Shown one piece after another: positions 20,649-29,559 of a stretch of 59,472 nucleotides of DNA. The notes beneath the pieces are model-generated. The model had not been told where the DNA came from. It saw only the letters and a program-made list of their open reading frames with translations, and searched no databases. Origin of the DNA: Eubacteriales bacterium (GTDB lineage: Bacteria > Bacillota > Clostridia > Oscillospirales > CAG-272). Made by a program: the position numbers and the translations under genes. Location: contig JAZNZC010000001.1 of assembly GCA_045594745.1 (NCBI GenBank), positions 1-59,472 of the forward strand. The letters run 5' to 3'. How positions within the stretch are numbered: position 1 is the stretch's first letter; each line of letters opens with the position of its first letter.

Positions 20649-21302
20649 ATGACTTACGTAATTTCGGATATTTGCGGCAACTATCAAAAATTCAAGGAGC
20701 TGATGGATAACGTTCTCATCAGCGATAGCGATACGCTCTACATTCTCGGCAACACCGTTGATTTTGGCGACGAGCCGATGGAGCTGATCGAGGACATCAG
20801 TATGCGCGCAAACGTCTACGCAGTAGCAGGCGAGCGCGACTATCTTGCCGCACGTATGCTGTACGGCTTTGATAAGATGCTCAAGGGTGGCACCACGCCC
20901 GATGCAAATTATATTTCCGAGATGACCGCATGGGTCGCCGAGGGCGGACAAACCACTCTCGACGGCTTCCGTGCACTCGATGCCGACTCCCGTGAGGGTG
21001 TGCTCGATTATCTTGCCGAAATGACGCTTTACGAAGAAGCAGACGTGAAGGGCAAAACATACATTCTGATGAGTCGCGGCATTGCAAATTACGACCCGGA
21101 TACCGATCTTGAGGACTACGAGCCCGAGGACTTTTTCGCGCCCGACGCAACCGCTCCAGAGATCGAGGATGCCATTGTTGTAGTTGGCGGAGAGCCCACC
21201 AAGAGCGGCAAGATCGAGCGAGAGGGCAGCGTGATTCGCATCAACTGCGGTGCAAAACTCGCGTGCCTCTGCCTTGAGACCGGCAAGGAGTTCTACGTCT
21301 GA
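20649..21302 (+). CDS. Calcineurin-like metallophosphoesterase homolog with degenerate active site
   Basis: YVISDICG, LYILGNTVDFG, GERD in place of SDxHG, GDxxDRG, GNHE. Confidence 0.7.
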   Translation: MTYVISDICGNYQKFKELMDNVLISDSDTLYILGNTVDFGDEPMELIEDISMRANVYAVAGERDYLAARMLYGFDKMLKGGTTPDANYISEMTAWVAEGGQTTLDGFRALDADSREGVLDYLAEMTLYEEADVKGKTYILMSRGIANYDPDTDLEDYEPEDFFAPDATAPEIEDAIVVVGGEPTKSGKIEREGSVIRINCGAKLACLCLETGKEFYV

Positions 21303-22696
21303 TGCAAAAAAATGATATTTTGCGTGTCCGCATCGAGGAGATCAACAATCTCGGCTTTGGCGTGGCACACGCAGAAGAGAAGAACGGCACGCGCGGCAAG
21401 GTCATTTTTGTGCGCGATGCTGTCACCGATGATGTGCTGGATGCGCGTATCATCAAAGTGAATAAAAGTTATCTCATTGCAAAAATTGAAAGAATGATAG
21501 AGCCCTCTGCGCTTCGCGCAACCGAGGGCGTTTGCACCGCCGCGGGATGCGGAGGGTGCGTTTATCAGCATATCCAGTATGAGCACGAAGCCGCCCTCAA
21601 GCGCGACTACGTCGAAAATGCATTCCGCAAAGCGGGGCTTTCGGATGTGAAAGTGGGCGAGCTTCGCCACACGGGAGAACTGACACGCTACCGCAACAAG
21701 GCGCAGTATCCCGTTGCTAACGGCAAGGCGGGAATGGTCGCGGGCTTTTATGCCACGGGTACACATCGCATCGTGCCTATGTCCGATTGCGCGCTTCAGC
21801 CCGAGGTGTTTGGCAAAATCGTGAACTACATCTGCGCGTTTTGCGACCGTAACGGCATTCGCGCCTACGAAGAAGAAAACGGATGCGGCGAATTGCGCCA
21901 CATTTATCTGCGCACGGGCGCCGAGACGGGCGAGGTGATGGTTTGCCTCGTTGTCAACGGCAAACATCTCAAAAACGAGGATACCCTCGCACGCGAATTG
22001 ACAGAGTATTTCCCCTCTGTCAAGAGTGTGATGCTCAATGTCAACCACGAGAATACCAACGTCGTCCTTGGCGATGACTACCGCTGCATCGGCGGCCACG
22101 ATTATATCGAGGATGTTTTGTGCGGACTGACATTCCGCATCTCCGCGGGAGCATTTTATCAGGTCAATCACAACGCCTGCGAGCTGCTTTACGGCATCGC
22201 GCGCGAGCGCGCAAAACTGACAGGAAAAGAGACCGTCCTCGACCTTTACTGCGGCATTGGCACCATCGGGCTTTCGATGGCAAAGGAGACGGAGAAGGTC
22301 ATCGGTATTGAGATCGTCGAAGAAGCCGTCACACGCGCTGCCGAGAATGCCGCGCGCAACAACATAACAAACGCCTATTTTTATTGCGGTGACGCTTCAA
22401 ACGCCGAAAAGCTGTTGGAGCGAACAGAGGCCGCCCACGGCGATATCTCGGGAGCAACCGTCATTATGGACCCCCCTCGCAAGGGAAGCACGCCCGAGCT
22501 CATCACCTACCTCGCCAAGCGCAACTTCGCGCGCATCGTCTACGTCTCCTGCAACCCCGACACCCTCGCCCGCGATTGCGTGCTGTTCAGAGAATTGGGA
22601 TACGAAATTGGAGAGGTAACGCCTGTGGATATGTTCCCGAGGACAGGACACGTGGAAAGTGTCGTTTGTCTGACGCGGTCAGACAAAGCGACGTGA
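21302..22696 (+). CDS. rlmD: 23S rRNA m5U1939 methyltransferase
   Basis: TRAM domain, CGGC, YRNKAQ, FYQVN, DLYCGIGTIG, DPPRKG, YVSCNP, VDMFPRTGHVE. Confidence 0.95.
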   Translation: MQKNDILRVRIEEINNLGFGVAHAEEKNGTRGKVIFVRDAVTDDVLDARIIKVNKSYLIAKIERMIEPSALRATEGVCTAAGCGGCVYQHIQYEHEAALKRDYVENAFRKAGLSDVKVGELRHTGELTRYRNKAQYPVANGKAGMVAGFYATGTHRIVPMSDCALQPEVFGKIVNYICAFCDRNGIRAYEEENGCGELRHIYLRTGAETGEVMVCLVVNGKHLKNEDTLARELTEYFPSVKSVMLNVNHENTNVVLGDDYRCIGGHDYIEDVLCGLTFRISAGAFYQVNHNACELLYGIARERAKLTGKETVLDLYCGIGTIGLSMAKETEKVIGIEIVEEAVTRAAENAARNNITNAYFYCGDASNAEKLLERTEAAHGDISGATVIMDPPRKGSTPELITYLAKRNFARIVYVSCNPDTLARDCVLFRELGYEIGEVTPVDMFPRTGHVESVVCLTRSDKAT

Positions 22697-22961
22697 TATA
22701 ACGCCTTACGGCGCGTGATATAGAACGCTTCGCGTTCGTGATATGCACCCTTCGGGTGCGTGATATGTCGCTTGCGCGACGTAAGGCGATGGCGTTCCAC
22801 GCTCGGCTTTGCCGAGCATATCACGCCGAGCAACGCGAGGCTATATCACGCTTGGCGCAGCCAAGCATATCACGAAAGCCAACGGCTTTCCATATCACGC
22901 GCGACGAAGTTGCGCTATATCACGACGGCAACGCCGTCTATATCACTCCACCGTAGGTGGA
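22692..22961. repeat. Hairpin array: 4x CGTGATAT then 6x ATATCAC linkers separating 11 sequence-variable stem-loops
   Basis: e.g. gcaccc-ttc-gggtgc, gctcggc-ttt-gccgagc, gcttggc-gca-gccaagc, gaaagcc-aac-ggctttc, tccacc-gta-ggtgga. Confidence 0.9.
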
Positions 22962-22976
22962 CCAAAAGGAGTATTT

Positions 22977-23330
22977 ATGGCAAAAACCTCACACGAACTC
23001 GCGATTGAATTTGCAGTTGAGATTACTGAATTATGCTCAAGAATAAAAGGGCGACCTGAATATACAAAGCAACTTATTCGCAGTGCATCTTCGATTAGTG
23101 CGAATATTGCTGAAGCTAAATATGCCGAGAGTAATGCTGACTTTGTTCATAAGCTCGAAATAGCCCAAAAGGAAGCAAACGAAACCGAAACTTGGCTTAG
23201 TGTTTTGTGTAAGAGCGGTATTATTGATGAGCTCACTTTCAAATCTTTACGAAACAAGTGTGGTAAGATCAGAAGAATGTTGATTGCTTCTATTACGACT
23301 GTTAAATCAAAATCTAACAGACAAAAGTGA
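22977..23330 (+). CDS. Four-helix bundle protein (23S rRNA IVP / Avd-like family)
   Basis: QLIRSASSISANIAEA...DFVHKLEIAQKEANETETWL signature; AAGGAG RBS. Confidence 0.88.
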   Translation: MAKTSHELAIEFAVEITELCSRIKGRPEYTKQLIRSASSISANIAEAKYAESNADFVHKLEIAQKEANETETWLSVLCKSGIIDELTFKSLRNKCGKIRRMLIASITTVKSKSNRQK

Positions 23331-23387
23331 TTTTTGAGCAAAACTCGAAATTCTTATTTACAGCTGTTTGGTATAACATATCGAAAG
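23328..23387 (+). repeat. Repeat B copy 1 (pre-ORF motif, possible extended -10 promoter)
   Basis: ttttgagcaa.actc.aaa...tttaca.ctgtttggtataacatatcgaaag, also at 26118-26176. Confidence 0.7.
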
Positions 23388-23412
23388 TTTTTTCATAAAG
23401 GGGGAACGAAAA

Positions 23413-23679
23413 TTGACAAATAAAGAAATGATTTTAGATAGCTTAATTGACGATGACGAAGCATTTACTCAAATAGTGGAATATTTTGAGTTGGTTGCCG
23501 AAATCAAAATATCTCATCAAGAAGTTGAAAAATTATTAGAAGAAATGTTAGATGAAGGCTATATTTCTATAAATTATAGCTGGAAAAATGAACATGGTGA
23601 ATACCCATATTCGTTGACTGAAAAAGGCAAAAAGGCTTGGGAAGAAATAAAGGAGTTATATATAGTCATCCATTTATAA
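23413..23679 (+). CDS. Cassette cargo: small winged-helix-like protein
   Basis: TTG start after AAGGGGG; LLEEMLDEGYI...YSLTEKGK wing motif. Confidence 0.65.
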   Translation: MTNKEMILDSLIDDDEAFTQIVEYFELVAEIKISHQEVEKLLEEMLDEGYISINYSWKNEHGEYPYSLTEKGKKAWEEIKELYIVIHL

Positions 23680-23680
23680 A

Positions 23681-23815
23681 ATGAGACTTTAAGGTAAGCA
23701 ACCTTTCGGAGAGGGAGCAAAATATACCTTTTGGCTTTACAACCCCCGTTTTTGACACAAAAATATACCTTTTGGTCTTATGACCCATGTTGAGTCCGTC
23801 GTTTGTCTGACGCGG
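23681..23815 (+). repeat. Cassette junction 1 (three boxes plus rlmD tail)
   Basis: Boxes at 23683, 23723, 23764; tail catgttgagtccgtcgtttgtctgacgcgg at 23786. Confidence 0.85.
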
Positions 23816-23826
23816 AAGGAGTAAGT

Positions 23827-24192
23827 ATGGATAATATTTTTACAACAATTCAAAAATTAACCGAATTAAATGACTTTTACTCGGTCTTATCCTTTCTTCG
23901 TGAAAAGGAAAAGGAGGGCGATATTGTTTTATATGCAGGAACATATTGTTTTGAAATGGCTTTAGAACGTTTTGGTAATTACGATGATGCTTCTTTTTAC
24001 ATTTACACTACGCAAGATAAGAGCGGGTATTGTGTTTACATAAATAGAATGGGGTGTGGAATCCGTGAGGATAACAAAATCTTTAAATTTTCTCACCGTT
24101 ATCTATACAATAAAAACCATTTAAGTAACTGTTTCTTTGGAGAAAAGGATTGCCGTTCTGGCGAATATTTTAAGAAAAAGAGTAAAAAGTGA
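23827..24192 (+). CDS. Cassette cargo: hypothetical protein
   Basis: AAGGAG RBS inside the tail repeat; stop inside next arm. Confidence 0.7.
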   Translation: MDNIFTTIQKLTELNDFYSVLSFLREKEKEGDIVLYAGTYCFEMALERFGNYDDASFYIYTTQDKSGYCVYINRMGCGIREDNKIFKFSHRYLYNKNHLSNCFFGEKDCRSGEYFKKKSKK

Positions 24193-24243
24193 GACCTTTT
24201 GCTTTCACAACCCCCATTTTTGACAGGTTTTGAGACCTTTTGC
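24185..24243 (+). repeat. Truncated junction (two boxes, no rlmD tail)
   Basis: gagaccttttg at 24191 and 24232 with caaccccc between. Confidence 0.8.
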
Positions 24244-24284
24244 GAAGCAAAAACTTCACCAATCAACAAAAAGGAGAAAGCAAT

Positions 24285-24743
24285 ATGAGAAAAAAACGCA
24301 CATTTGCCTTTCATAGCAGATTAGATCCACGCAATTTTGGTGTAAGAATGCAAGAAGAAGCGAAACAAGCACGTTTACCAATTGAGCAATCCGAAAATGC
24401 ATTTAATTTGCGTATTGACGGCAATCACGGTGGTCAAGTTTTCTATCAGGCTCGCATATCCGCAGACGAATATGGTGGCTCTCTTATAGAAGGGGAGATA
24501 ATCACCATTCCTTGGAATGAGGGTGAAAATAAAACTAAGTTCGAAAAAGTTATGGAAGTGATTGGTTACGTACTTGGTGGTATTGTTTTGTCACCTATTA
24601 TCATTTTGGTTTTTCTAATTTTGGGATTTGATGAATTGTTTTGTCTTTTTAAAAACAAGGGCAAAAGAGAATTGCCAAGAGAAGAGAAAAAACTTCTTGA
24701 TTTTATGCTCAATAAACTATGTTGTACTCAAATTACGGATTAA
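24285..24743 (+). CDS. Cassette cargo: hypothetical membrane protein
   Basis: AAGGAG RBS; one C-terminal hydrophobic segment. Confidence 0.7.
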   Translation: MRKKRTFAFHSRLDPRNFGVRMQEEAKQARLPIEQSENAFNLRIDGNHGGQVFYQARISADEYGGSLIEGEIITIPWNEGENKTKFEKVMEVIGYVLGGIVLSPIIILVFLILGFDELFCLFKNKGKRELPREEKKLLDFMLNKLCCTQITD

Positions 24744-24751
24744 GTCGCGGT

Positions 24752-24849
24752 AAAAATATACCTTTTGTAGTTTCCACCCCCGTTTTTGGCACAAAAATAT
24801 ACCTTTTGGAGTCTTAACCCACGTCGAGTCCGTCGTGTGTCTCACAAGG
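24752..24849 (+). repeat. Cassette junction 2
   Basis: Boxes at 24757, 24798; tail at 24820. Confidence 0.85.
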
Positions 24850-24857
24850 AGATAATT

Positions 24858-25250
24858 ATGGAGTTTAGCGAAATTTATAAAACAGTTTTTGAAATCAATC
24901 CCAGCTTGAAAGACAAGATTGAAAACGACGCAAAAGACTTTTGCGTCATCAAATTTCATGAATATTTGACGATTGGATTTGATGATGATTATGTTGATAT
25001 CAATCAAGGATTCACGCATGCGCATCTTGATGGAGTGGATAACAAGCTATTTTTTGATATTATTCAAGGAAATATGGTTTTTGTGCAAGACACGCGAAAG
25101 TTTTCAATAAAAATGTTTTCCTTGTTGCAACCCTGGAATTTGAAAATAACGAGCAAACAAAAATTTGAAACTAAAAAAGCTTCACTTATGAAGAAGAAGT
25201 ATTTGCGCATATATACAGCAAATGAAATCATAAAAAGAAGCGAAAAGTGA
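24858..25250 (+). CDS. Cassette cargo: hypothetical protein
   Basis: AAGGAG RBS in tail; stop inside next arm. Confidence 0.7.
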   Translation: MEFSEIYKTVFEINPSLKDKIENDAKDFCVIKFHEYLTIGFDDDYVDINQGFTHAHLDGVDNKLFFDIIQGNMVFVQDTRKFSIKMFSLLQPWNLKITSKQKFETKKASLMKKKYLRIYTANEIIKRSEK

Positions 25251-25341
25251 GATTTTAAGGTATTACACCCCCCATTTTTGACCGATTTTGAGACCTTTTG
25301 GAGTCTTGACCCATGTCGAGAGTGTCGTTTGTCTGACGAGA
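25243..25341 (+). repeat. Cassette junction 3
   Basis: Boxes at 25249, 25290; tail at 25312. Confidence 0.85.
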
Positions 25342-25354
25342 GAGGAGTAATGAT

Positions 25355-25843
25355 ATGGAAAATCTTTTATTTAGTGATGTTCCGCAAAACGATGCCAAGG
25401 TTATGAAAAGTATGAAAGTAACACGAATTGTGTTAATTATTTTTTGTGCCATTGTTTTGCTTTTTGCGGTGCTTGGCTTGATTTTGAAAGACATTGTCAT
25501 CGTGATTGATTCGGTAATTGGAATTGTGCTTTTCTTTTCTCTTTTTATAACTTGCTTGTGTATGGAACAGCAGTATTTGCTTGTTTTTACTGATAAAATC
25601 AAGTATAAAAAGGGGCTCTCAGGAAAAGAAAAGCAGTTGACAATTGCTCCAAGTCAATACAAAATCAAATTGAGAAGGCTAACCACCCGAGGCGGCTATA
25701 CGGTTTGGATGTTGTTCTACAACCAAAAAGGCAAAAGGGTGTTGTCATATAAACTGTGCCAACCCCTCACGGACAAAAGAAAATATGATTTGAGCAAAAT
25801 AGGCTGTGAAATCATTGACCGGCAAAAAGTGATAAAGCAATAA
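25355..25843 (+). CDS. Cassette cargo: two-TM membrane protein with basic soluble domain
   Basis: GAGGAG RBS; two hydrophobic helices. Confidence 0.75.
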   Translation: MENLLFSDVPQNDAKVMKSMKVTRIVLIIFCAIVLLFAVLGLILKDIVIVIDSVIGIVLFFSLFITCLCMEQQYLLVFTDKIKYKKGLSGKEKQLTIAPSQYKIKLRRLTTRGGYTVWMLFYNQKGKRVLSYKLCQPLTDKRKYDLSKIGCEIIDRQKVIKQ

Positions 25844-25872
25844 AATTGACAGAGCGGTTTCAATAAAAAGGC

Positions 25873-25972
25873 AAAAGGTGAGACTTTAAAGTATTACACC
25901 CCCTGTTTTTCGACCATTTTGAGACCTTTTGTACTCTTGATCCACGTCGAGAGTGTCGTTTGTCTGACGAGA
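25873..25972 (+). repeat. Cassette junction 4
   Basis: Boxes at 25880, 25921; tail at 25943. Confidence 0.85.
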
Positions 25973-25985
25973 AAAATTTAACCTT

Positions 25986-26063
25986 GTAGGGACCGGCCTC
26001 CCGGACGGTCCGTTGAAAAGATAAAGGCCGTTGTTGCGGACCGTCGAGGACGCCGGTCCCTAC
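25986..26063. repeat. REPIN-like inverted pair of GTAG REPs
   Basis: gtagggaccggcctcccggacggtccg ... cggaccgtcgaggacgccggtccctac. Confidence 0.8.
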
Positions 26064-26117
26064 CAAAATCGGTGTTCAAAATCAAAAAATGCCCCAATTT
26101 TGCGTTGGGACAAATGA

Positions 26118-26176
26118 TGATTTTGAGCAATACTCAAAAGTACATTTTACATCTGTTTGGTATAACATATCGAAAG
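26118..26176 (+). repeat. Repeat B copy 2
   Basis: Matches 23328-23387; degenerate third copy at about 26767-26800. Confidence 0.7.
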
Positions 26177-26184
26177 GGGATTTC

Positions 26185-26652
26185 ATGAAAAAAAGCAAAT
26201 TAAACATCATTCAAAATGAAAACAAAATTACGGTCAAGAAAAAACCTGATGTTTCAAATTGTGTTATTTTCGCAGGGGTATTTCTTGCAGGAATTTTGCT
26301 TCCCATCATTTTTGGAGAATTAAGAGATGTTCCTTTGTTTTGGGTTGTATATGCGTTTTGCATGTTAGCAAACATTGCACATTTTACATCGACATTCTTT
26401 GGGAAAGTCGTGGTTGACTCGGAAAAACGAGAAATCAACATATATAATCTGTGTAAAGAAACATACCGTTTTGATGAACTGAAAGAGCTGAAAAGTTTCT
26501 TCCAAGAAGGAGACTCGGACGGTGGAATGGACACTCATAAGGTGTTGTTTATCTTTACAAACGGGCATAAAAGCGAAATACAAACAACAAGTAAAGAACA
26601 AACCCAAGAACTCATTGATGTGTTGAACGGGGTCATATTTCCGCAAAAGTGA
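26185..26652 (+). CDS. Cassette cargo: two-TM protein with possible PH-like C-terminal domain
   Basis: AAGGGG RBS; two TM helices; stop inside next arm. Confidence 0.7.
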   Translation: MKKSKLNIIQNENKITVKKKPDVSNCVIFAGVFLAGILLPIIFGELRDVPLFWVVYAFCMLANIAHFTSTFFGKVVVDSEKREINIYNLCKETYRFDELKELKSFFQEGDSDGGMDTHKVLFIFTNGHKSEIQTTSKEQTQELIDVLNGVIFPQK

Positions 26653-26743
26653 GACTTTAAGGTATTACAACCCCCATTTTCAGCCCATTTTGAGACCTTT
26701 TGTACTCTTGATCCACGTCGAGAGTGTCGTTTGTCTGACGAGA
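26645..26743 (+). repeat. Cassette junction 5 (near-identical to junction 4)
   Basis: Boxes at 26651, 26692; tail at 26714. Confidence 0.85.
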
Positions 26744-26806
26744 AAACAACCCCGCCCTACGAAAATATTTTACAATAGTACAAGTTAACATACCGAAAGG
26801 ATAATT

Positions 26807-27361
26807 ATGATTTCTGACGAAGGAAGTAGATTCAAATCTTGGAGCAACCTAAAAAAGCAGATGAATGATTTACTTTGCGATTCACTCAAGGGGAAAATTT
26901 CGTATTTTTATACCTGTTATCACGAAGTTCACAACGCTTACGGCAGAGCGACTATCAATTATTGCAAGAACGAAATTGTCGCCTTTTCGTGGGTGGAGCG
27001 ATATCACCAGATGTACGATATGAGTGAGCAATACAAAAAGATGGATGATGGTTCACGCCCACCTGCGAATTATGAAGATGCTGTAGATGCTTATATGGCA
27101 GCCAGTGCTGTGGTCACGAAAGAAAAATGGATGCCGAATTGTACTTTGTGCGAGGCGGATTTCATCAATTCCATTACCGTTTATCTCAAGACAAATATCT
27201 CAACCGCTCTTCAATCGGATAATTATCTGTTGCGCGTATTTGCCTACATGGATAGAAGAGTTGGTAAACGAACGCTTATAAAAATCAAAGATGATGTGGA
27301 AAAGCTGCCTGAATGGGTAAGGCAGTTCTATCGCATACGCTGTGAAGCTGAGAAAGTTTGA
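26807..27361 (+). CDS. Cassette cargo: conserved hypothetical protein (resembles SF0329-type family)
   Basis: WSNLKKQ...LCDSLKGKI and DRRVGKRTL motifs recalled from a widespread uncharacterised family. Confidence 0.7.
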   Translation: MISDEGSRFKSWSNLKKQMNDLLCDSLKGKISYFYTCYHEVHNAYGRATINYCKNEIVAFSWVERYHQMYDMSEQYKKMDDGSRPPANYEDAVDAYMAASAVVTKEKWMPNCTLCEADFINSITVYLKTNISTALQSDNYLLRVFAYMDRRVGKRTLIKIKDDVEKLPEWVRQFYRIRCEAEKV

Positions 27362-27415
27362 AATATACCTTTTGACTTTATGGTCCACGTTGAGAGTGTC
27401 GTTTGTCTTTCGCGA
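27361..27415 (+). repeat. Cassette junction 6 (one box plus tail)
   Basis: Box at 27364; tail at 27386. Confidence 0.8.
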
Positions 27416-27435
27416 AAATAATATGAGGTACATTT

Positions 27436-27789
27436 ATGAATGACATTGAACTTATCTACAATGAATTAAAAGACAAGTACAAATTGCTTTTAACCAATAG
27501 TTTCGCATTAAATGAAGGGTTTACGTGGGATGTTCCCGTTATTTGTGGCAAATCTCCATCGGGCAAATTTTGGCTCTACGCCGATGAAGATATTCCCGAT
27601 CCACACGGTATTGAATTTGTTTTCTCTGTAGAATACGAAAAGCGAACTCGGTTCAGAAAGCGCTTGGTTAAATGTCACACCCATTGGCATCCGCAGACTA
27701 TAGAGCAAGCTATTGCGGATGTTGAAGACTTTATGGATGGCAAAATTCATTTTTCGCAGACACTTACGGGAGTTTTGATCAAACGTTGA
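27436..27789 (+). CDS. Cassette cargo: hypothetical protein
   Basis: GAGG RBS; runs into the last junction. Confidence 0.65.
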   Translation: MNDIELIYNELKDKYKLLLTNSFALNEGFTWDVPVICGKSPSGKFWLYADEDIPDPHGIEFVFSVEYEKRTRFRKRLVKCHTHWHPQTIEQAIADVEDFMDGKIHFSQTLTGVLIKR

Positions 27790-27811
27790 AAGTGTCGTTT
27801 GTCTCACGAGG
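27759..27811 (+). repeat. Cassette junction 7 (degenerate; probable oldest rlmD tail)
   Basis: gacacttacgggagttttgatc-a-aacgttgaaagtgtcgtttgtctcacgagg. Confidence 0.75.
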
Positions 27812-27824
27812 CAAATCCAACCTT

Positions 27825-28000
27825 GTAGGGGGCGACGTCCTCGACGCCCCGAGAACAAACGGATTTTTGATTGTTAAAAAAGAAAACCGCATGAGAAAGA
27901 CACGCCGTCTGATTTATTTGTGCTTTTTACAACGGGTCGTCGAGGACGTCGACCCCTACAAAAGTTGTTTTCCCCGTAGGGGCGATTCACAAATCGCCCG
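27825..28000. repeat. Cluster of three GTAG REP-like palindromes
   Basis: 27825-27851 (+), 27933-27959 (-), 27976-28000 (+). Confidence 0.8.
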
Positions 28001-28041
28001 CAAAGAGACGAACATTTATCAATTCAGAAAGGACGCCTATT

Positions 28042-29559
28042 ATGAAAATTGCAAGCATTATGAATTTTGCGCGGCAGATCGATCAGCGTATGGAGGATAG
28101 CGAAAATATCCTCTTTAACGCAACGCGTGCCGAACTCGAAATGGTCAACGAATTTGGCTTTGAGAATACCTTCCTTTTGCAATACGACGTCCTTTGTGAT
28201 CCGCGCTATGCGGAACTGTTCCGCGAAAAGGGAACCGAGCGTACCGAGCTTGGCATTTGGTACGAGATCGTCGAGCCTCTGACCTCTGCCTGCGGACTCC
28301 CTTACAAGAGCGAGCGCGGCTGGCGTTGGGATTGGCATATCGTTCCAGGCTTTTCAATGGCTTATACCCCTCGGGAGCGCGAAATGCTCATCGACGAGGC
28401 GATGCGAAAATTCAAAGAGGTCTACGGTTATTATCCGCGCACTGTGGCAAGCTGGCTGATCGACACACACACGGTTCGCTATCTTGCAGAGCATTACGAC
28501 GTCGATGCTATCGCAATCTGCCGCGATCAGACCAACACAGATGCCTACACGCTCCACGGCGGATATTTCAATCAAGCATACTATCCCTGCAAGAACAATA
28601 TCTTCACCCCCGCGCAAAGCGAGGGAGAGCAGGTGAATGTTCCTGTGTTCCGTCTTTTGGGGCCTTGTCCCATTCACAACTATGACAACAAAAAATACCT
28701 CACCCACGCGTGGGATGCGCGCCTGCACTGCGGTTGCTTTACAATGGAGCCCGTTGGCTCTGTCGGCGCCGCGCCCGAGAACGTGGATTGGTTCTATAAA
28801 ACATTTTATCAAAACGAGGATCTTGGATTTTCCTGGACGCAGATCGGTCAGGAGAACAGCTTTGGCTACACCGAGTTTTTGCCGCAGCTGCGTATGCAGA
28901 TCGAAAAACTGACAGAGCAAAAGAATGTTCAAGTAATGAAGATGTGCGACGCGGGCGCGTGGTTCAAAAAGACTTACCCGAGCACGCCTGCTACGTCGGT
29001 GGTCGCTCTGGACAACTGGGACAGAGGAAGTGATGCGCAATCGGTTTGGTACGATTGCCAAAGCTTTTCTGCAAATCTCTTCCGCTTCGAGCGGAGCATC
29101 TTTATTCGCTCGTGGCATCTGTTCGACGAGCGCGTGCCCGAGCATTACATCACTGAAAAATGCACCACATTCGATGCGGTGTATGAAAATTTGCCTCTTG
29201 TCGACGCTCTGTTCTGGAATGACGGCGAAAATTACAAGAGCGGCATTCAAATTGACGCCGATGCGTCGTCTTTTGCGGTCGAGCGCCGCGGCGAGGACTC
29301 CTTGGCAGTCAAATGGAGCGGTGGCGAGGTGATATTCCTTCCCGACCGCATCAAAATCACTGCTCCCGTGCTTCGCTTTTGGGCGAGTCGCGCAAAGTGC
29401 TTGACGGTGGCAGGGAATACCATTCAGTACAACTATAAAGGAACGCCTTATACATTGGAGATTATCAGCGCCGATGTCCACGAGGAAGCCGATCATATCT
29501 CCATCACGCCAACGAGCGGCCTGTGCGAGCTCATCCCACGCCGCGCCGAAACTGTTTGA
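28042..29559 (+). CDS. Uncharacterised protein, possibly glycoside hydrolase/deacetylase barrel
   Basis: Long ORF with RBS; TFLLQYD, ELGIWYE, KFKEVYGYYP motifs. Confidence 0.6.
   Translation: MKIASIMNFARQIDQRMEDSENILFNATRAELEMVNEFGFENTFLLQYDVLCDPRYAELFREKGTERTELGIWYEIVEPLTSACGLPYKSERGWRWDWHIVPGFSMAYTPREREMLIDEAMRKFKEVYGYYPRTVASWLIDTHTVRYLAEHYDVDAIAICRDQTNTDAYTLHGGYFNQAYYPCKNNIFTPAQSEGEQVNVPVFRLLGPCPIHNYDNKKYLTHAWDARLHCGCFTMEPVGSVGAAPENVDWFYKTFYQNEDLGFSWTQIGQENSFGYTEFLPQLRMQIEKLTEQKNVQVMKMCDAGAWFKKTYPSTPATSVVALDNWDRGSDAQSVWYDCQSFSANLFRFERSIFIRSWHLFDERVPEHYITEKCTTFDAVYENLPLVDALFWNDGENYKSGIQIDADASSFAVERRGEDSLAVKWSGGEVIFLPDRIKITAPVLRFWASRAKCLTVAGNTIQYNYKGTPYTLEIISADVHEEADHISITPTSGLCELIPRRAETV

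Follow-up and report, generated by a model that had tools for sequence, protein, structure and literature searches.

Tandem recombinase-less gene cassettes behind rlmD in gut Clostridia and the repeated site that joins them

In the stretch of DNA analysed here (the window; 59,472 nt of contig JAZNZC010000001.1, from a Eubacteriales bacterium), the 23S rRNA methyltransferase gene rlmD is followed by seven small cassettes on the same strand, bounded by eight tails that copy its last conserved codons (HVESVVCLT) (Table 1). This is an integron-like gene-capture locus without a recombinase of its own, common to many uncultured gut Clostridia. The explanation we prefer, with roughly even confidence for and against, is that of a tandem recombinase-less array of seven cassettes in the rlmD 3′ end, moved by a site-specific recombinase supplied in trans. 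It is built on four observations: the geometry of the junctions, the retention of that geometry in different genera, cassettes that have moved from one array position to another, and alleles whose linkage breaks at -13 to -7.

The rlmD product contains TRAM and tRNA_U5-meth_tr domains (Pfam). The last conserved codons of the gene are the target site, and its current 3′ end (from 22649) comes from cassette 0. The array is preceded by TrmK, NIF3 and rlmD and followed by a 505-aa ORF of unknown kind and an ABC transporter.

Table 1. Parts of the rlmD cassette array, in coordinates of the window
Feature	Coordinates	Strand	Details
rlmD (rumA), 23S rRNA (uracil-C5)-methyltransferase	21302..22696	+	TIGR00479 rumA, 376.2 bits against a cut-off of 183.55
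Junction 0	22649..22678	+	Native rlmD left half and tail 0 (CACGTGGAAAGTGTCGTTTGTCTGACGCGG); armless
Cassette 0	22679..23681	+	Four parts (following rows)
Cassette 0, Gut-1-like leader	22691-22771		
Cassette 0, four-helix-bundle gene	22809-23330		23S rRNA IVP family
Cassette 0, leader/promoter-like module	23320-23387		68 nt
Cassette 0, small winged-helix gene	23413-23679		
Junction 1	23682..23815	+	Boxes 23682, 23722, 23763; tail 1 (23786-23815)
Cassette 1	23816..24755	+	Composite: ORF 23803/23828-24192, tailless box pair 24190/24231, ORF 24240-24743
Junction 2	24756..24849	+	Boxes 24756 and 24797; tail 24820-24849
Cassette 2	24850..25247	+	ORF (24786/24859)-25250, without family match; its TGA stop codon falls within the distal box
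Junction 3	25248..25341	+	Distal box 25248 (1 mismatch), proximal box 25289, tail 25312-25341
Cassette 3	25342..25878	+	ORF 25355-25843, without family match
Junction 4	25879..25972	+	Distal box 25879 (1 mismatch), proximal box 25920, tail 25943-25972
Cassette 4	25973..26649	+	GC-rich palindromic repeat element (~25985-26065), 68-nt leader module (26109-26176), ORF 26089/26186-26652
Junction 5	26650..26743	+	Boxes 26650 and 26691; tail 26714-26743; 92% identity to junction 4
Cassette 5	26744..27362	+	SF0329-family gene 26807-27361 (PF25753 at 1.4e-44; NF049912)
Junction 6	27363..27415	+	Lone proximal box 27363, tail 27386-27415; minimal form of the site
Cassette 6	27416..27811	+	ORF 27436-27789, running into tail 7 (27783-27811)

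The 12-nt box WKAKACYTTWWG has 12 matches in the window, all on the + strand and all within 23682-27374, against a chance expectation of 0.37 (100 shuffles; sd 0.61, maximum 3). The tail pattern CAYGTNGARNNNGTCGTKTGTCT has 7 matches against 0.00 expected, the first of which is the true rlmD 3′ end. An earlier sequence-only reading had described box pairs 41 bp apart in six arms; this is exact at 23722/23763, 24190/24231, 24756/24797 and 26650/26691, while at 25248/25289 and 25879/25920 the spacing holds and the distal box is one base off the consensus given there (TGAGATTTTAAG, TGAGACTTTAAA). It had also placed the proximal box 22 bp ahead of a CAY codon in six junctions, as we find (K of the box at 23764, 24798, 25290, 25921, 26692 and 27364; CAY at 23786, 24820, 25312, 25943, 26714 and 27386). 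The sixth of these junctions is the single box at 27363, and the pair 24190/24231 has no following tail. A third box lies at 23682, 40 bp ahead of 23722, and the eighth tail (tail 7) has neither arm nor CA.

Of 401 genomes of the family 20 have the site, as do 14 of 97 genera (reversed-pattern control, 0), and in a scan of genome contigs from gut Clostridia at least 135 stretches contain it, always behind rlmD wherever the flank permits checking. Among 186 unique in-register sites, 134 have the distal box, at a spacing of 41 bp in 113 of the 134, and 185 of 190 sites have the same number of bases between box and His codon. Both the box ACCTTTTG and its distance to CA are near-invariant across the 14 genera while neighbouring positions vary, indicating selection for a protein-binding site. 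The conserved core runs from -36 to +20 (57 nt) and is centred near -8, i.e. near CACGT. For a large serine recombinase, an attachment site of ~40-50 bp with conservation centred on the crossover is expected, and ~57 bp is the size of a serine-integrase attP; the core fits in both size and centring. The tails differ from one another in synonymous rlmD codons (AGT/TCN, GTT/GTG, CTG/CTC), which would be expected were every tail required to be able to complete rlmD.

That arm and tail together form a recombination junction, as previously proposed, is supported by the occurrence of the same cassettes at different array positions in different genomes. The 98 unique cassettes measure 287 to 6609 bp (median 776); 67 contain a single ORF, 90 have ORFs on the rlmD strand alone, and 95% of the coding sequence is co-oriented with rlmD. 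Matches of cassettes across loci number 76 at a coverage of at least 70%, several of them at differing array positions, and identical cassettes occupy different positions in different genera. The cargo includes defence genes (restriction-modification systems, PDC-S57), and the cassettes examined yielded no genes for transfer, replication or recombinases. In metagenome contigs cassettes are present, absent or reordered. Cassette 0 lies behind a different arm in one of these contigs (joint 24808->22658), the GC-rich element of cassette 4 is skipped in another joint (25975->26065), and the inner unit of cassette 1 and a 41-bp distal unit are variably present in other organisms (joints 24180->24754 and 24180->24231). 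A 99%-identical copy of cassette 5 is the final cassette of another organism's contig, from which the cassette 6 stretch is missing (joint 27408->28040).

In the mechanism we propose, the junction would be a double-stranded attachment site consisting of an optional distal unit (box plus 29-bp spacer), the proximal box (A/G-ACCTTTTG), a 10-bp linker and a ~30-bp rlmD copy (codons H-V-E-S-V-V-C-L-T). A cassette circle would carry arm and tail as a single, attP-like site and would recombine with the rlmD end or with any array tail, at or next to the His codon (CACGT). The tail of the incoming cassette would then stay on rlmD, preserving the C-terminus of the gene, while its arm would join the previously resident tail. 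The reaction would be conservative and site-specific, with the recombinase provided in trans; the likeliest candidate is a large serine recombinase with specificity for rumA/rlmD, encoded by a visiting prophage or by a conjugative or mobilizable element. Cassettes may be transcribed from upstream or from promoters within the junctions.

The point of exchange was sought in the alleles of arm and tail, which are linked within each side and unlinked across -13 to -7 (CACGT, the His codon). With the limit that sites from related genomes are non-independent samples, linker alleles show no association with -7, -4, the Ser codon or +5 (p 0.29 to 0.97), and linkage is present within the tail (-7 with Ser, p 0.003; Ser with +5, p 6e-10) and within the arm (box type with linker, p 4e-4). 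Each tail moves together with the cassette downstream of it, and each arm with the cassette upstream. Homology of the arm sites to native rlmD begins at C-12, and the direct repeat flanking a helicase cassette in locus L052 begins exactly at that base. A large serine recombinase would exchange at a single fixed 2-bp position; the pair analysis permits an exchange point from -13 to -3. Its central dinucleotide would be non-palindromic and identical in both partner sites, and two candidates have this property, CA (-12/-11) and GA (-6/-5), neither of which varies among the 168 arm sites and 54 arm-less sites. The sequence-only reading put the crossover at CA; the linkage break supports the His-codon region, with GA at -6/-5 still a candidate. 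An exchange point left of -7 is favoured, and the reported target of rumA serine recombinases is the dinucleotide GA rather than CA (PMC4120198).

The site is also a mosaic, in which neither box type nor linker has more than a loose connection with the ORF upstream. Further break points lie after the distal box, within the spacer and after the proximal box, and in some cassette pairs the tail differences continue to +11, so that homologous exchange acts too and blurs the mapping. These break points, the decay of linkage with distance within both blocks, the box-to-box contig joints (24180->24754, 24180->24231) and the failure to find a recombinase at the arrays would all suit a locus with no dedicated enzyme today, in which ~100-bp junction repeats are relics of old integrations and homologous recombination shuffles cassettes after DNA uptake. 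We consider this improbable, since the near-invariance of ACCTTTTG and of the box-to-CA distance over 14 genera indicates selection for a protein-binding site, linkage vanishes within 6-12 bp at -13 to -7 but is kept over equal distances elsewhere, and 95% of the coding sequence lies on the rlmD strand.

An inverted repeat about CA, previously described as part of the site, is real in three junctions, with stems of 9 pairs (2 G-T) at 25932-25953 and 26703-26724 and of 7 pairs at 25304-25321 (in junction 4, ACTCTTGAT-CCAC-GTCGAGAGT). It appears weak, is not general to the site and seems to be absent from the native target, whereas a large-serine-recombinase site would have imperfect dyad symmetry about the crossover in attP and attB alike. 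Dyad complementarity in arm sites is 0.39 at CA and 0.40 at -4/-3 (range 0.11 to 0.40 over 42 centres), and 0.24 at CA in the native rlmD target. The 7-bp inner repeat requires the linker CTTGAC, found in 90 of 186 sites, and the junctions folded as DNA (8 strands) are no better than shuffles (z -1.80 to +0.55). These results bear on the view that the junction is mainly an expression signal, the CA hairpin followed by CGTTTGTCT forming a weak terminator or processing site, and TTTACA/TTGACA with the A/T-rich proximal box forming a promoter for the next cassette. A scan for terminator-like elements does list 25931-25956, 26702-26727 and 25304-25321, one for promoter-like elements lists 23736-23764, and TTGAC(A) occurs within the spacer. 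This view is nevertheless very improbable, given the folding result, the dependence of the stem on one linker type, and its silence on the copied rlmD codons and on cassette mobility. An expression role could be additional to recombination rather than an alternative to it.

The distal box had been taken for an accessory or directionality site, which its absence from 52 of 186 sites (28%) and its lower conservation do not support. Its appearance is that of a second copy of the site that has decayed, not of an accessory element that recombination needs, and in the proposed mechanism the distal unit would be such a duplicate in decay. Serine integrases are not known to use accessory DNA sites, and the conservation of the distal box is left unexplained by a serine-integrase model.

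An attachment site of a large serine recombinase would be expected to have the cognate gene on the element or next to the site, and none lies in or beside any array (116 ORFs, 127 loci). No recombinase gene of any kind was recognized by Pfam in or beside the arrays among the 116 ORFs scanned, and tblastn over the 127 loci (1.27 Mb), with 18 large-serine-recombinase ORFs and the tyrosine-recombinase locus ORFs as queries, gave as sole match one serine recombinase, 10.7 kb upstream of rlmD in locus L265. Large serine recombinases are not associated with the arrays: PF07508 matches occur in 13 of 19 array-bearing genomes, against 18 of 21 hand-picked controls of the same genera. The other 6 array-bearing genomes have no PF07508 match, and genome G075 (95% complete) has neither kind of serine recombinase domain. 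The two richest arrays share a serine recombinase at 98% identity, which has a 72% homologue in an array-free genome and no homologue in most array genomes. A serine recombinase acting in trans is our best guess.

The same array might instead be served by a tyrosine recombinase, either a helper-encoded integrase or a host Xer-like enzyme, which we regard as unlikely. The two boxes would then be helically phased arm-type binding sites, and the core would be TCTTGA-CCCACG-TCGAGA with a 6-bp overlap; the attP of lambda-type tyrosine integrases has arm-type repeats and inverted core sites, with an overlap of 6-8 bp shared with attB. The direct 12-bp repeats, which lie to one side of the core at a spacing of 41 bp, accord with such a site, although the opposite side has no boxes and 52 of 186 sites lack the distal one. 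The linkage break falls between the halves of the inner inverted repeat, which has a 4-6 bp spacer (90 of 186 sites contain TCTTGA/TCGAGA), and ~30 bp of identity to a target gene 3′ end is typical of tyrosine integrases. The putative overlap, however, is CCCACG in arm sites but GACACG or a variant of it in native rlmD, and includes the polymorphic -10. As to the enzyme, tyrosine recombinases occur in every array genome, some of which lack a serine recombinase, and one orthologue of ~330-350 aa was found in 5 of 5 genomes compared. But no array has an adjoining integrase, this sole shared orthologue has the look of a housekeeping Xer, and inspection of the site by eye revealed nothing resembling dif.

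A broader reading, about which we are doubtful, is that of an active capture platform of gut and rumen Clostridia that would function in the manner of an integron through a different chemistry, with a 57-bp double-stranded site, entry through a housekeeping gene and a recombinase that is never in the locus. If so, the recombinase would perhaps be a host enzyme reading the ACCTTTTG boxes rather than a classical large serine integrase, and restriction-modification and other defence genes would be stockpiled across genera.

Among known systems, the closest in target are the large-serine-recombinase elements of rumA/rlmD, comprising the vanG elements and ICE-r (PMC4120198) and IME_SpnAP200_rumA (PMC5704250). 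According to PMC4120198, serine-recombinase elements insert tandemly at a conserved dinucleotide 11 codons from the rumA end, bringing a replacement gene end. The array resembles them in target gene and region, tandem insertion and element-supplied gene end, and they are known in Firmicutes, including the gut Clostridium relative R. intestinalis. These elements measure tens of kb, with the recombinase at the right end fused to the rumA 3′ codons, and reportedly cross over at GA, whereas array linkage points to CACGT, 4 to 6 bp left of the Glu-codon GA. The array units are 0.3 to 6.6 kb long, usually with one gene and no recombinase, and share a conserved box-bearing arm.

The array also resembles the staphylococcal SCC composite islands and pseudo-SCC elements at rlmH, where an rRNA methyltransferase gene likewise has a stack of cassettes in its 3′ end, with a gene-end repeat bounding each one. 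Some of them lack the ccr serine recombinase and depend on ccr in trans. An SCC unit spans 10-60 kb and contains many genes, its island normally includes the recombinase, and SCC differs further in target gene, host group and the lack of a box-41 bp-box arm. With integrons the array shares mostly single-gene, co-oriented cassettes behind a fixed entry point, exchanged between arrays and positions, and defence genes among the cargo. Unlike integrons, it has its entry point inside a housekeeping gene and its hosts in Clostridia, no intI was found next to it (window neighbours; tblastn of 127 loci), and its junctions, unlike attC, do not fold as single-stranded hairpins (8 strands).

CIMEs and tandem accretion at att sites, as treated in PMC5704250, likewise involve att-flanked units without integration or transfer genes, in tandem at a gene 3′ end, and CIMEs are described there as decayed ICEs or IMEs adjoining a functional element. 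The array differs in having up to seven compact cassettes and one site family across 14 genera, and, against an origin by ICE or IME decay, neither relics of transfer genes nor a resident helper were seen in the cassettes and arrays examined.

The gene at the head of the array is rlmD (rumA), and its protein ends in ...DMFPRTG-HVESVVCLTR-SDKAT. Each tail copies the rlmD codons H to T/R, and the locus therefore consists of rlmD followed by seven units (cassettes), each of which closes with an arm plus a tail. All ORFs of the array lie on the rlmD strand; they are small and mostly lack a family match, those that have one being related to four-helix-bundle (23S rRNA IVP family), winged-helix and SF0329-family proteins. 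A tail might be a target-site duplication copied from the host at each insertion, but this is ruled out because the tails of one array differ (AGT vs TCC).

Site positions are counted from the G of GTCGT in the tail (position 0), placing the His codon CAY at -12 to -10, the Glu codon GAR at -6 to -4 and the proximal box ACCTTTTG, the one nearer the His codon, at -31 to -24. The box consensus WKAKACYTTWWG has 12 matches in the 59-kb window, all on one strand and in one region, vs a chance mean of 0.37 and maximum of 3 (100 dinucleotide-preserving shuffles), and the tail pattern has 7 matches vs 0.00 expected. The recurrent box of fixed geometry proposed in the sequence-only reading is borne out by these counts, as is its distance to the His codon, the proximal box lying 22 bp ahead of CAY in six junctions. 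That reading also listed six box pairs 41 bp apart; the spacing is exact in four, and in two others the distal box is one base off consensus. The cassette junction is a real recombination site of fixed geometry.

Coordinates of the array, its junctions and accompanying elements (a joint is a gut metagenome contig running from one window position straight to another)
Feature	Location	Strand	Details
rlmD (rumA)	window 21302-22696	+	TIGR00479, 376 bits (cut-off 183.55); Pfam TRAM and U5-methyltransferase domain
Gut-1-like match (RF01706)	window 22691-22771	+	34.2 bits vs gathering 50, E 7e-4; begins ~30 nt past the rlmD tail
68-nt module, two copies	window 23320-23387, 26109-26176		81% identical; end in TGGTATAACATATCGAAAG immediately ahead of ORF starts
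All 12 box matches	window 23682-27374	+	
Extra (third) box	window 23682	+	
Box pair	window 24190/24231	+	no tail
Box pairs	window 25248/25289, 25879/25920	+	distal box one base off consensus
Single box	window 27363	+	with tail
Eighth tail copy	window 27783		arm-less
GC-rich palindromic elements	window ~25985-26065, 27815-27990		in the array and past it, respectively
505-aa ORF	window 28042-29559		directly past the array
Joint	24808 to 22658		cassette 0 behind another arm
Joint	27408 to 28040		cassette 5 copy, 99% identical, as last unit
Joint	24180 to 24754		ORF2 unit missing
Joint	24180 to 24231		one contig; lacks exactly the 41-bp distal unit
Joint	25975 to 26065		one contig; skips a GC-rich element
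Array in L114 (Goat colon MAG contig)	L114 5902-7540		behind an aldose-1-epimerase gene
Second leader type in L052 (genome G244)	L052 7117-7350, 10213-10440		short hairpins, each hairpin then GTGAAGTT; duplicated
Serine recombinase genes on C49 (window's genome)	L195 7239-10127		
Arm-spacer 15-mer on C151 (window's genome)	C151 72768-72781 (L197)		~170 nt upstream of a 508-aa serine recombinase gene

A sub-threshold match to the orphan Gut-1 RNA motif makes up the leader of the cassette with the four-helix-bundle gene; the passage in PMC2864571 reports this motif only from human-gut metagenomes, with its context not known. A match with the same placement (33.8 to 38.5 bits) occurs in 5 of 7 related loci searched, such leaders being found in L062, L060 (two copies), L265 and L099. 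The 68-nt module, also present in L052 ahead of a helicase gene, resembles a portable promoter or leader that has an extended -10 and is common to unrelated cassettes. In four gut metagenomes, the summed contig depth over the GC-rich palindromic elements (GTAGGG...CCCTAC) exceeds that of adjacent bins by a factor of 10 to 100; they seem to be a REP/MITE-like repeat of high abundance. No Pfam, NCBIfam or PADLOC entry matches the 505-aa ORF, which is conserved (90% identity) as the downstream neighbour on a contig of another organism.

The anatomy of the site is defined by 168 unique sites with an arm and 54 without; of the latter, 45 come after the rlmD motif D/N-x-F-P. Arm sites resemble native rlmD from C-12 to ~+20, the most conserved positions being ACCTTTTG, T-20, TGACC, CA, GT, GA, GTCGT and TGTCT. 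Tail variation is confined to third codon positions and the Ser codon (AGT, AGC, TCN), and the tails therefore stay able to encode the rlmD end. The box-to-His distance is constant in 185 of 190 sites. A distal box is present in 134 of the 186 in-register sites and absent from 52, its spacing from the proximal box being 41 bp in 113 of the 134 and 40 bp in 13. The distal unit echoes the proximal pattern (box, ~9 nt, A-CCC-N-CGT) in less conserved form, and we infer that it may be a decaying duplicate of the site.

Alleles across the 186 sites fall into two linkage blocks, arm and tail. Since they come from related genomes, the sites are not independent samples for the following values: in the arm block, box type is linked to the linker between box and His codon (p 4e-4); in the tail block, -7 and -4 are each linked to Ser (p 0.003 for both), Ser to +5 (p 6e-10) and +5 to +11 (p 1.5e-5); and the linker (-19 to -13) shows no association with -10, -7, -4, Ser or +5 (p 0.29 to 0.97). 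Because equal distances within either block preserve strong linkage, the break at -13 to -7 (CACGT) is a specific one. No linkage to any other position is seen for -10 (C/T, in a CpG). Pairs of sites with a common upstream or a common downstream cassette, not both (57 and 148 pairs), show that the arm tracks the upstream cassette and the tail, from about -3 to +14, the downstream one. In L052, the direct repeat flanking the helicase cassette starts exactly at C-12. A putative exchange region near the His codon is thus supported by this break in allele linkage, in agreement with the crossover at the CA of that codon proposed earlier. The same pair analysis gives weak upstream linkage at -7 (0.63 to 0.68 vs 0.47 in random pairs), which would fit exchange at GA. 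A crossover at +10 to +12, suggested by single cassette pairs and by joints at 25334 and 27408, finds no support in the way -3 to +14 tracks the downstream cassette. Homologous exchange inside the repeats is clearly at work as well: neither box type nor linker is more than loosely coupled to the upstream ORF, several break points lie within the arm, and tail differences reach +11 in some cassette pairs.

The imperfect palindrome that the sequence-only reading had centred on CA holds in part. An inner repeat, TCTTGAC-CCAC-GTCGAGA, is present where the linker is CTTGAC (90 of 186 sites). Over 24 positions, the dyad complementarity of arm sites is 0.39 at CA and 0.40 at -4/-3, with values from 0.11 to 0.40 among 42 centres, and native rlmD sites give 0.24 at CA; as a general feature, the palindrome about CA is weak. 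Single strands of the junctions fold no better than shuffles (z -1.80 to +0.55), and the junctions are accordingly not attC-like.

The 98 unique cassettes range from 287 to 6609 bp (median 776) and are strongly oriented, with ORFs of at least 60 aa on the rlmD strand only in 90 and on the opposite strand only in none; 67 carry a single ORF. Cross-locus matches covering at least 70% of a cassette number 76, and an identical cassette occupies first, second or fourth place in different arrays. Rearrangement of the window's own units is seen in assembled contigs from four gut metagenomes (joints in the table); the best sequencing runs contained 0.25 to 0.28 of the words sampled. Among the genes that cassettes carry in relatives are those for three restriction-modification systems, an 875-aa helicase, a candidate defence protein (PDC-S57) and a patatin-like protein, together with many unknowns. 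The second cassette-leader type of L052 is present on both sides of the helicase cassette, and its downstream copy directly precedes another arm, forming in effect an 'empty' cassette.

The window's genome, an 80.65% complete MAG of 153 contigs, has the site at the rlmD locus only. Within the family it is present in 20 of 401 genomes, spread over 14 of 97 genera, at up to 6 copies each (reversed-pattern control, 0), and a scan of prokaryotes with one genome for each species finds it in at least 135 stretches. Among the matches listed, all titles are uncultured Clostridia MAGs (Eubacteriales, Oscillospiraceae, Christensenellaceae and similar labels) and every stated source is animal gut or faeces, including deer, sheep, goat and buffalo. 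A scan of metagenome contigs added 34 short contigs with the site and no helper element. Where the flank suffices, the site lies just 3' of rlmD, with 1 to 5 cassettes between. One exception is L114, in which the array follows only a relic gene end (…YHVESVVCLTRK) and no rlmD is found in the 7 kb upstream; this array has either moved or lost its target gene. A phage or plasmid origin of the site is rejected, since the box-plus-tail pattern has 0 matching stretches in viral contigs and the 111-nt site no plasmid or phage match by blastn; the tail alone has one match in viral contigs, a chance match inside a GC-rich gene.

Among 116 ORFs scanned in and around arrays, none has a recombinase or transposase domain, and a tblastn search of 127 loci (1.27 Mb) with recombinase queries gives a single large serine recombinase match, in L265, 10.7 kb upstream of rlmD. 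The large serine recombinases (three or four) and tyrosine recombinases (about seven) of the window's genome all lie on other contigs, none with an adjoining box or tail. On this ground the genome's own serine recombinases (contigs C49, C126 and C151) are rejected; the HVE[S]VV motif is absent near every recombinase locus examined, and an extra tail-like match on C150 sits inside a gene on the opposite strand. PF07508 matches occur in 13 of 19 other array-bearing genomes vs 18 of 21 controls chosen from the same genera, where array status is set by a strict pattern and controls may therefore include diverged sites. The array genomes lacking a match (G036, G075, G130, G186, G240 and G376) are 90-99% complete, and in G075 a resolvase domain is likewise not found. 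The only tyrosine recombinase orthologue common to all five genomes compared is Xer-like in size, and phage and plasmid collections yield no helper.

A 543-aa serine recombinase of C49 is 98% identical to one on contig C45 of G160; the window's genome and G160 have the two richest arrays. After this pair, the closest homologues occur in an array-free genome (72%) and few others, and the C49 enzyme is rejected as the array recombinase as it is not associated with arrays. On these contigs, a PemK toxin gene adjoins two tandem large-serine-recombinase genes, with a third beginning at the contig end. The 98% identity across genera points to recent transfer of this element, and no link to the rlmD array was found. 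On C151, the arm-spacer 15-mer CCCCCGTTTTTGACA lies near a serine recombinase gene beside TIR-domain genes; it may be a chance match because the genome has two extra matches, one of them inside a gene.

The rlmD locus is a sequence-defined, widespread gene-exchange site in almost wholly uncultured bacteria. With a near-invariant 57-bp site spanning -36 to +20 and a mapped exchange region, the identity of the cassette-moving enzyme becomes directly testable, and a trans-acting recombinase with so compact a site would also be a tool for inserting genes into gut Clostridia. The cargo (restriction-modification, PDC-S57, helicase, small unknowns) may constitute a defence or accessory-gene store akin to chromosomal integrons. 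In the literature searched (titles and selected passages), no description of recombinase-less cassette arrays at rlmD was found. Comparable to the array are the SCC composite islands at rlmH, besides elements that use rumA itself. In the relevant passage of PMC4120198, the serine-recombinase elements vanG and ICE-r, which can also insert in tandem, target a GA dinucleotide within codon 11 counted from the rumA end, and a replacement end is fused to rumA. IMEs with serine integrases target rumA too, and recombinase-less CIMEs are formed by accretion, as outlined in a section of PMC5704250.
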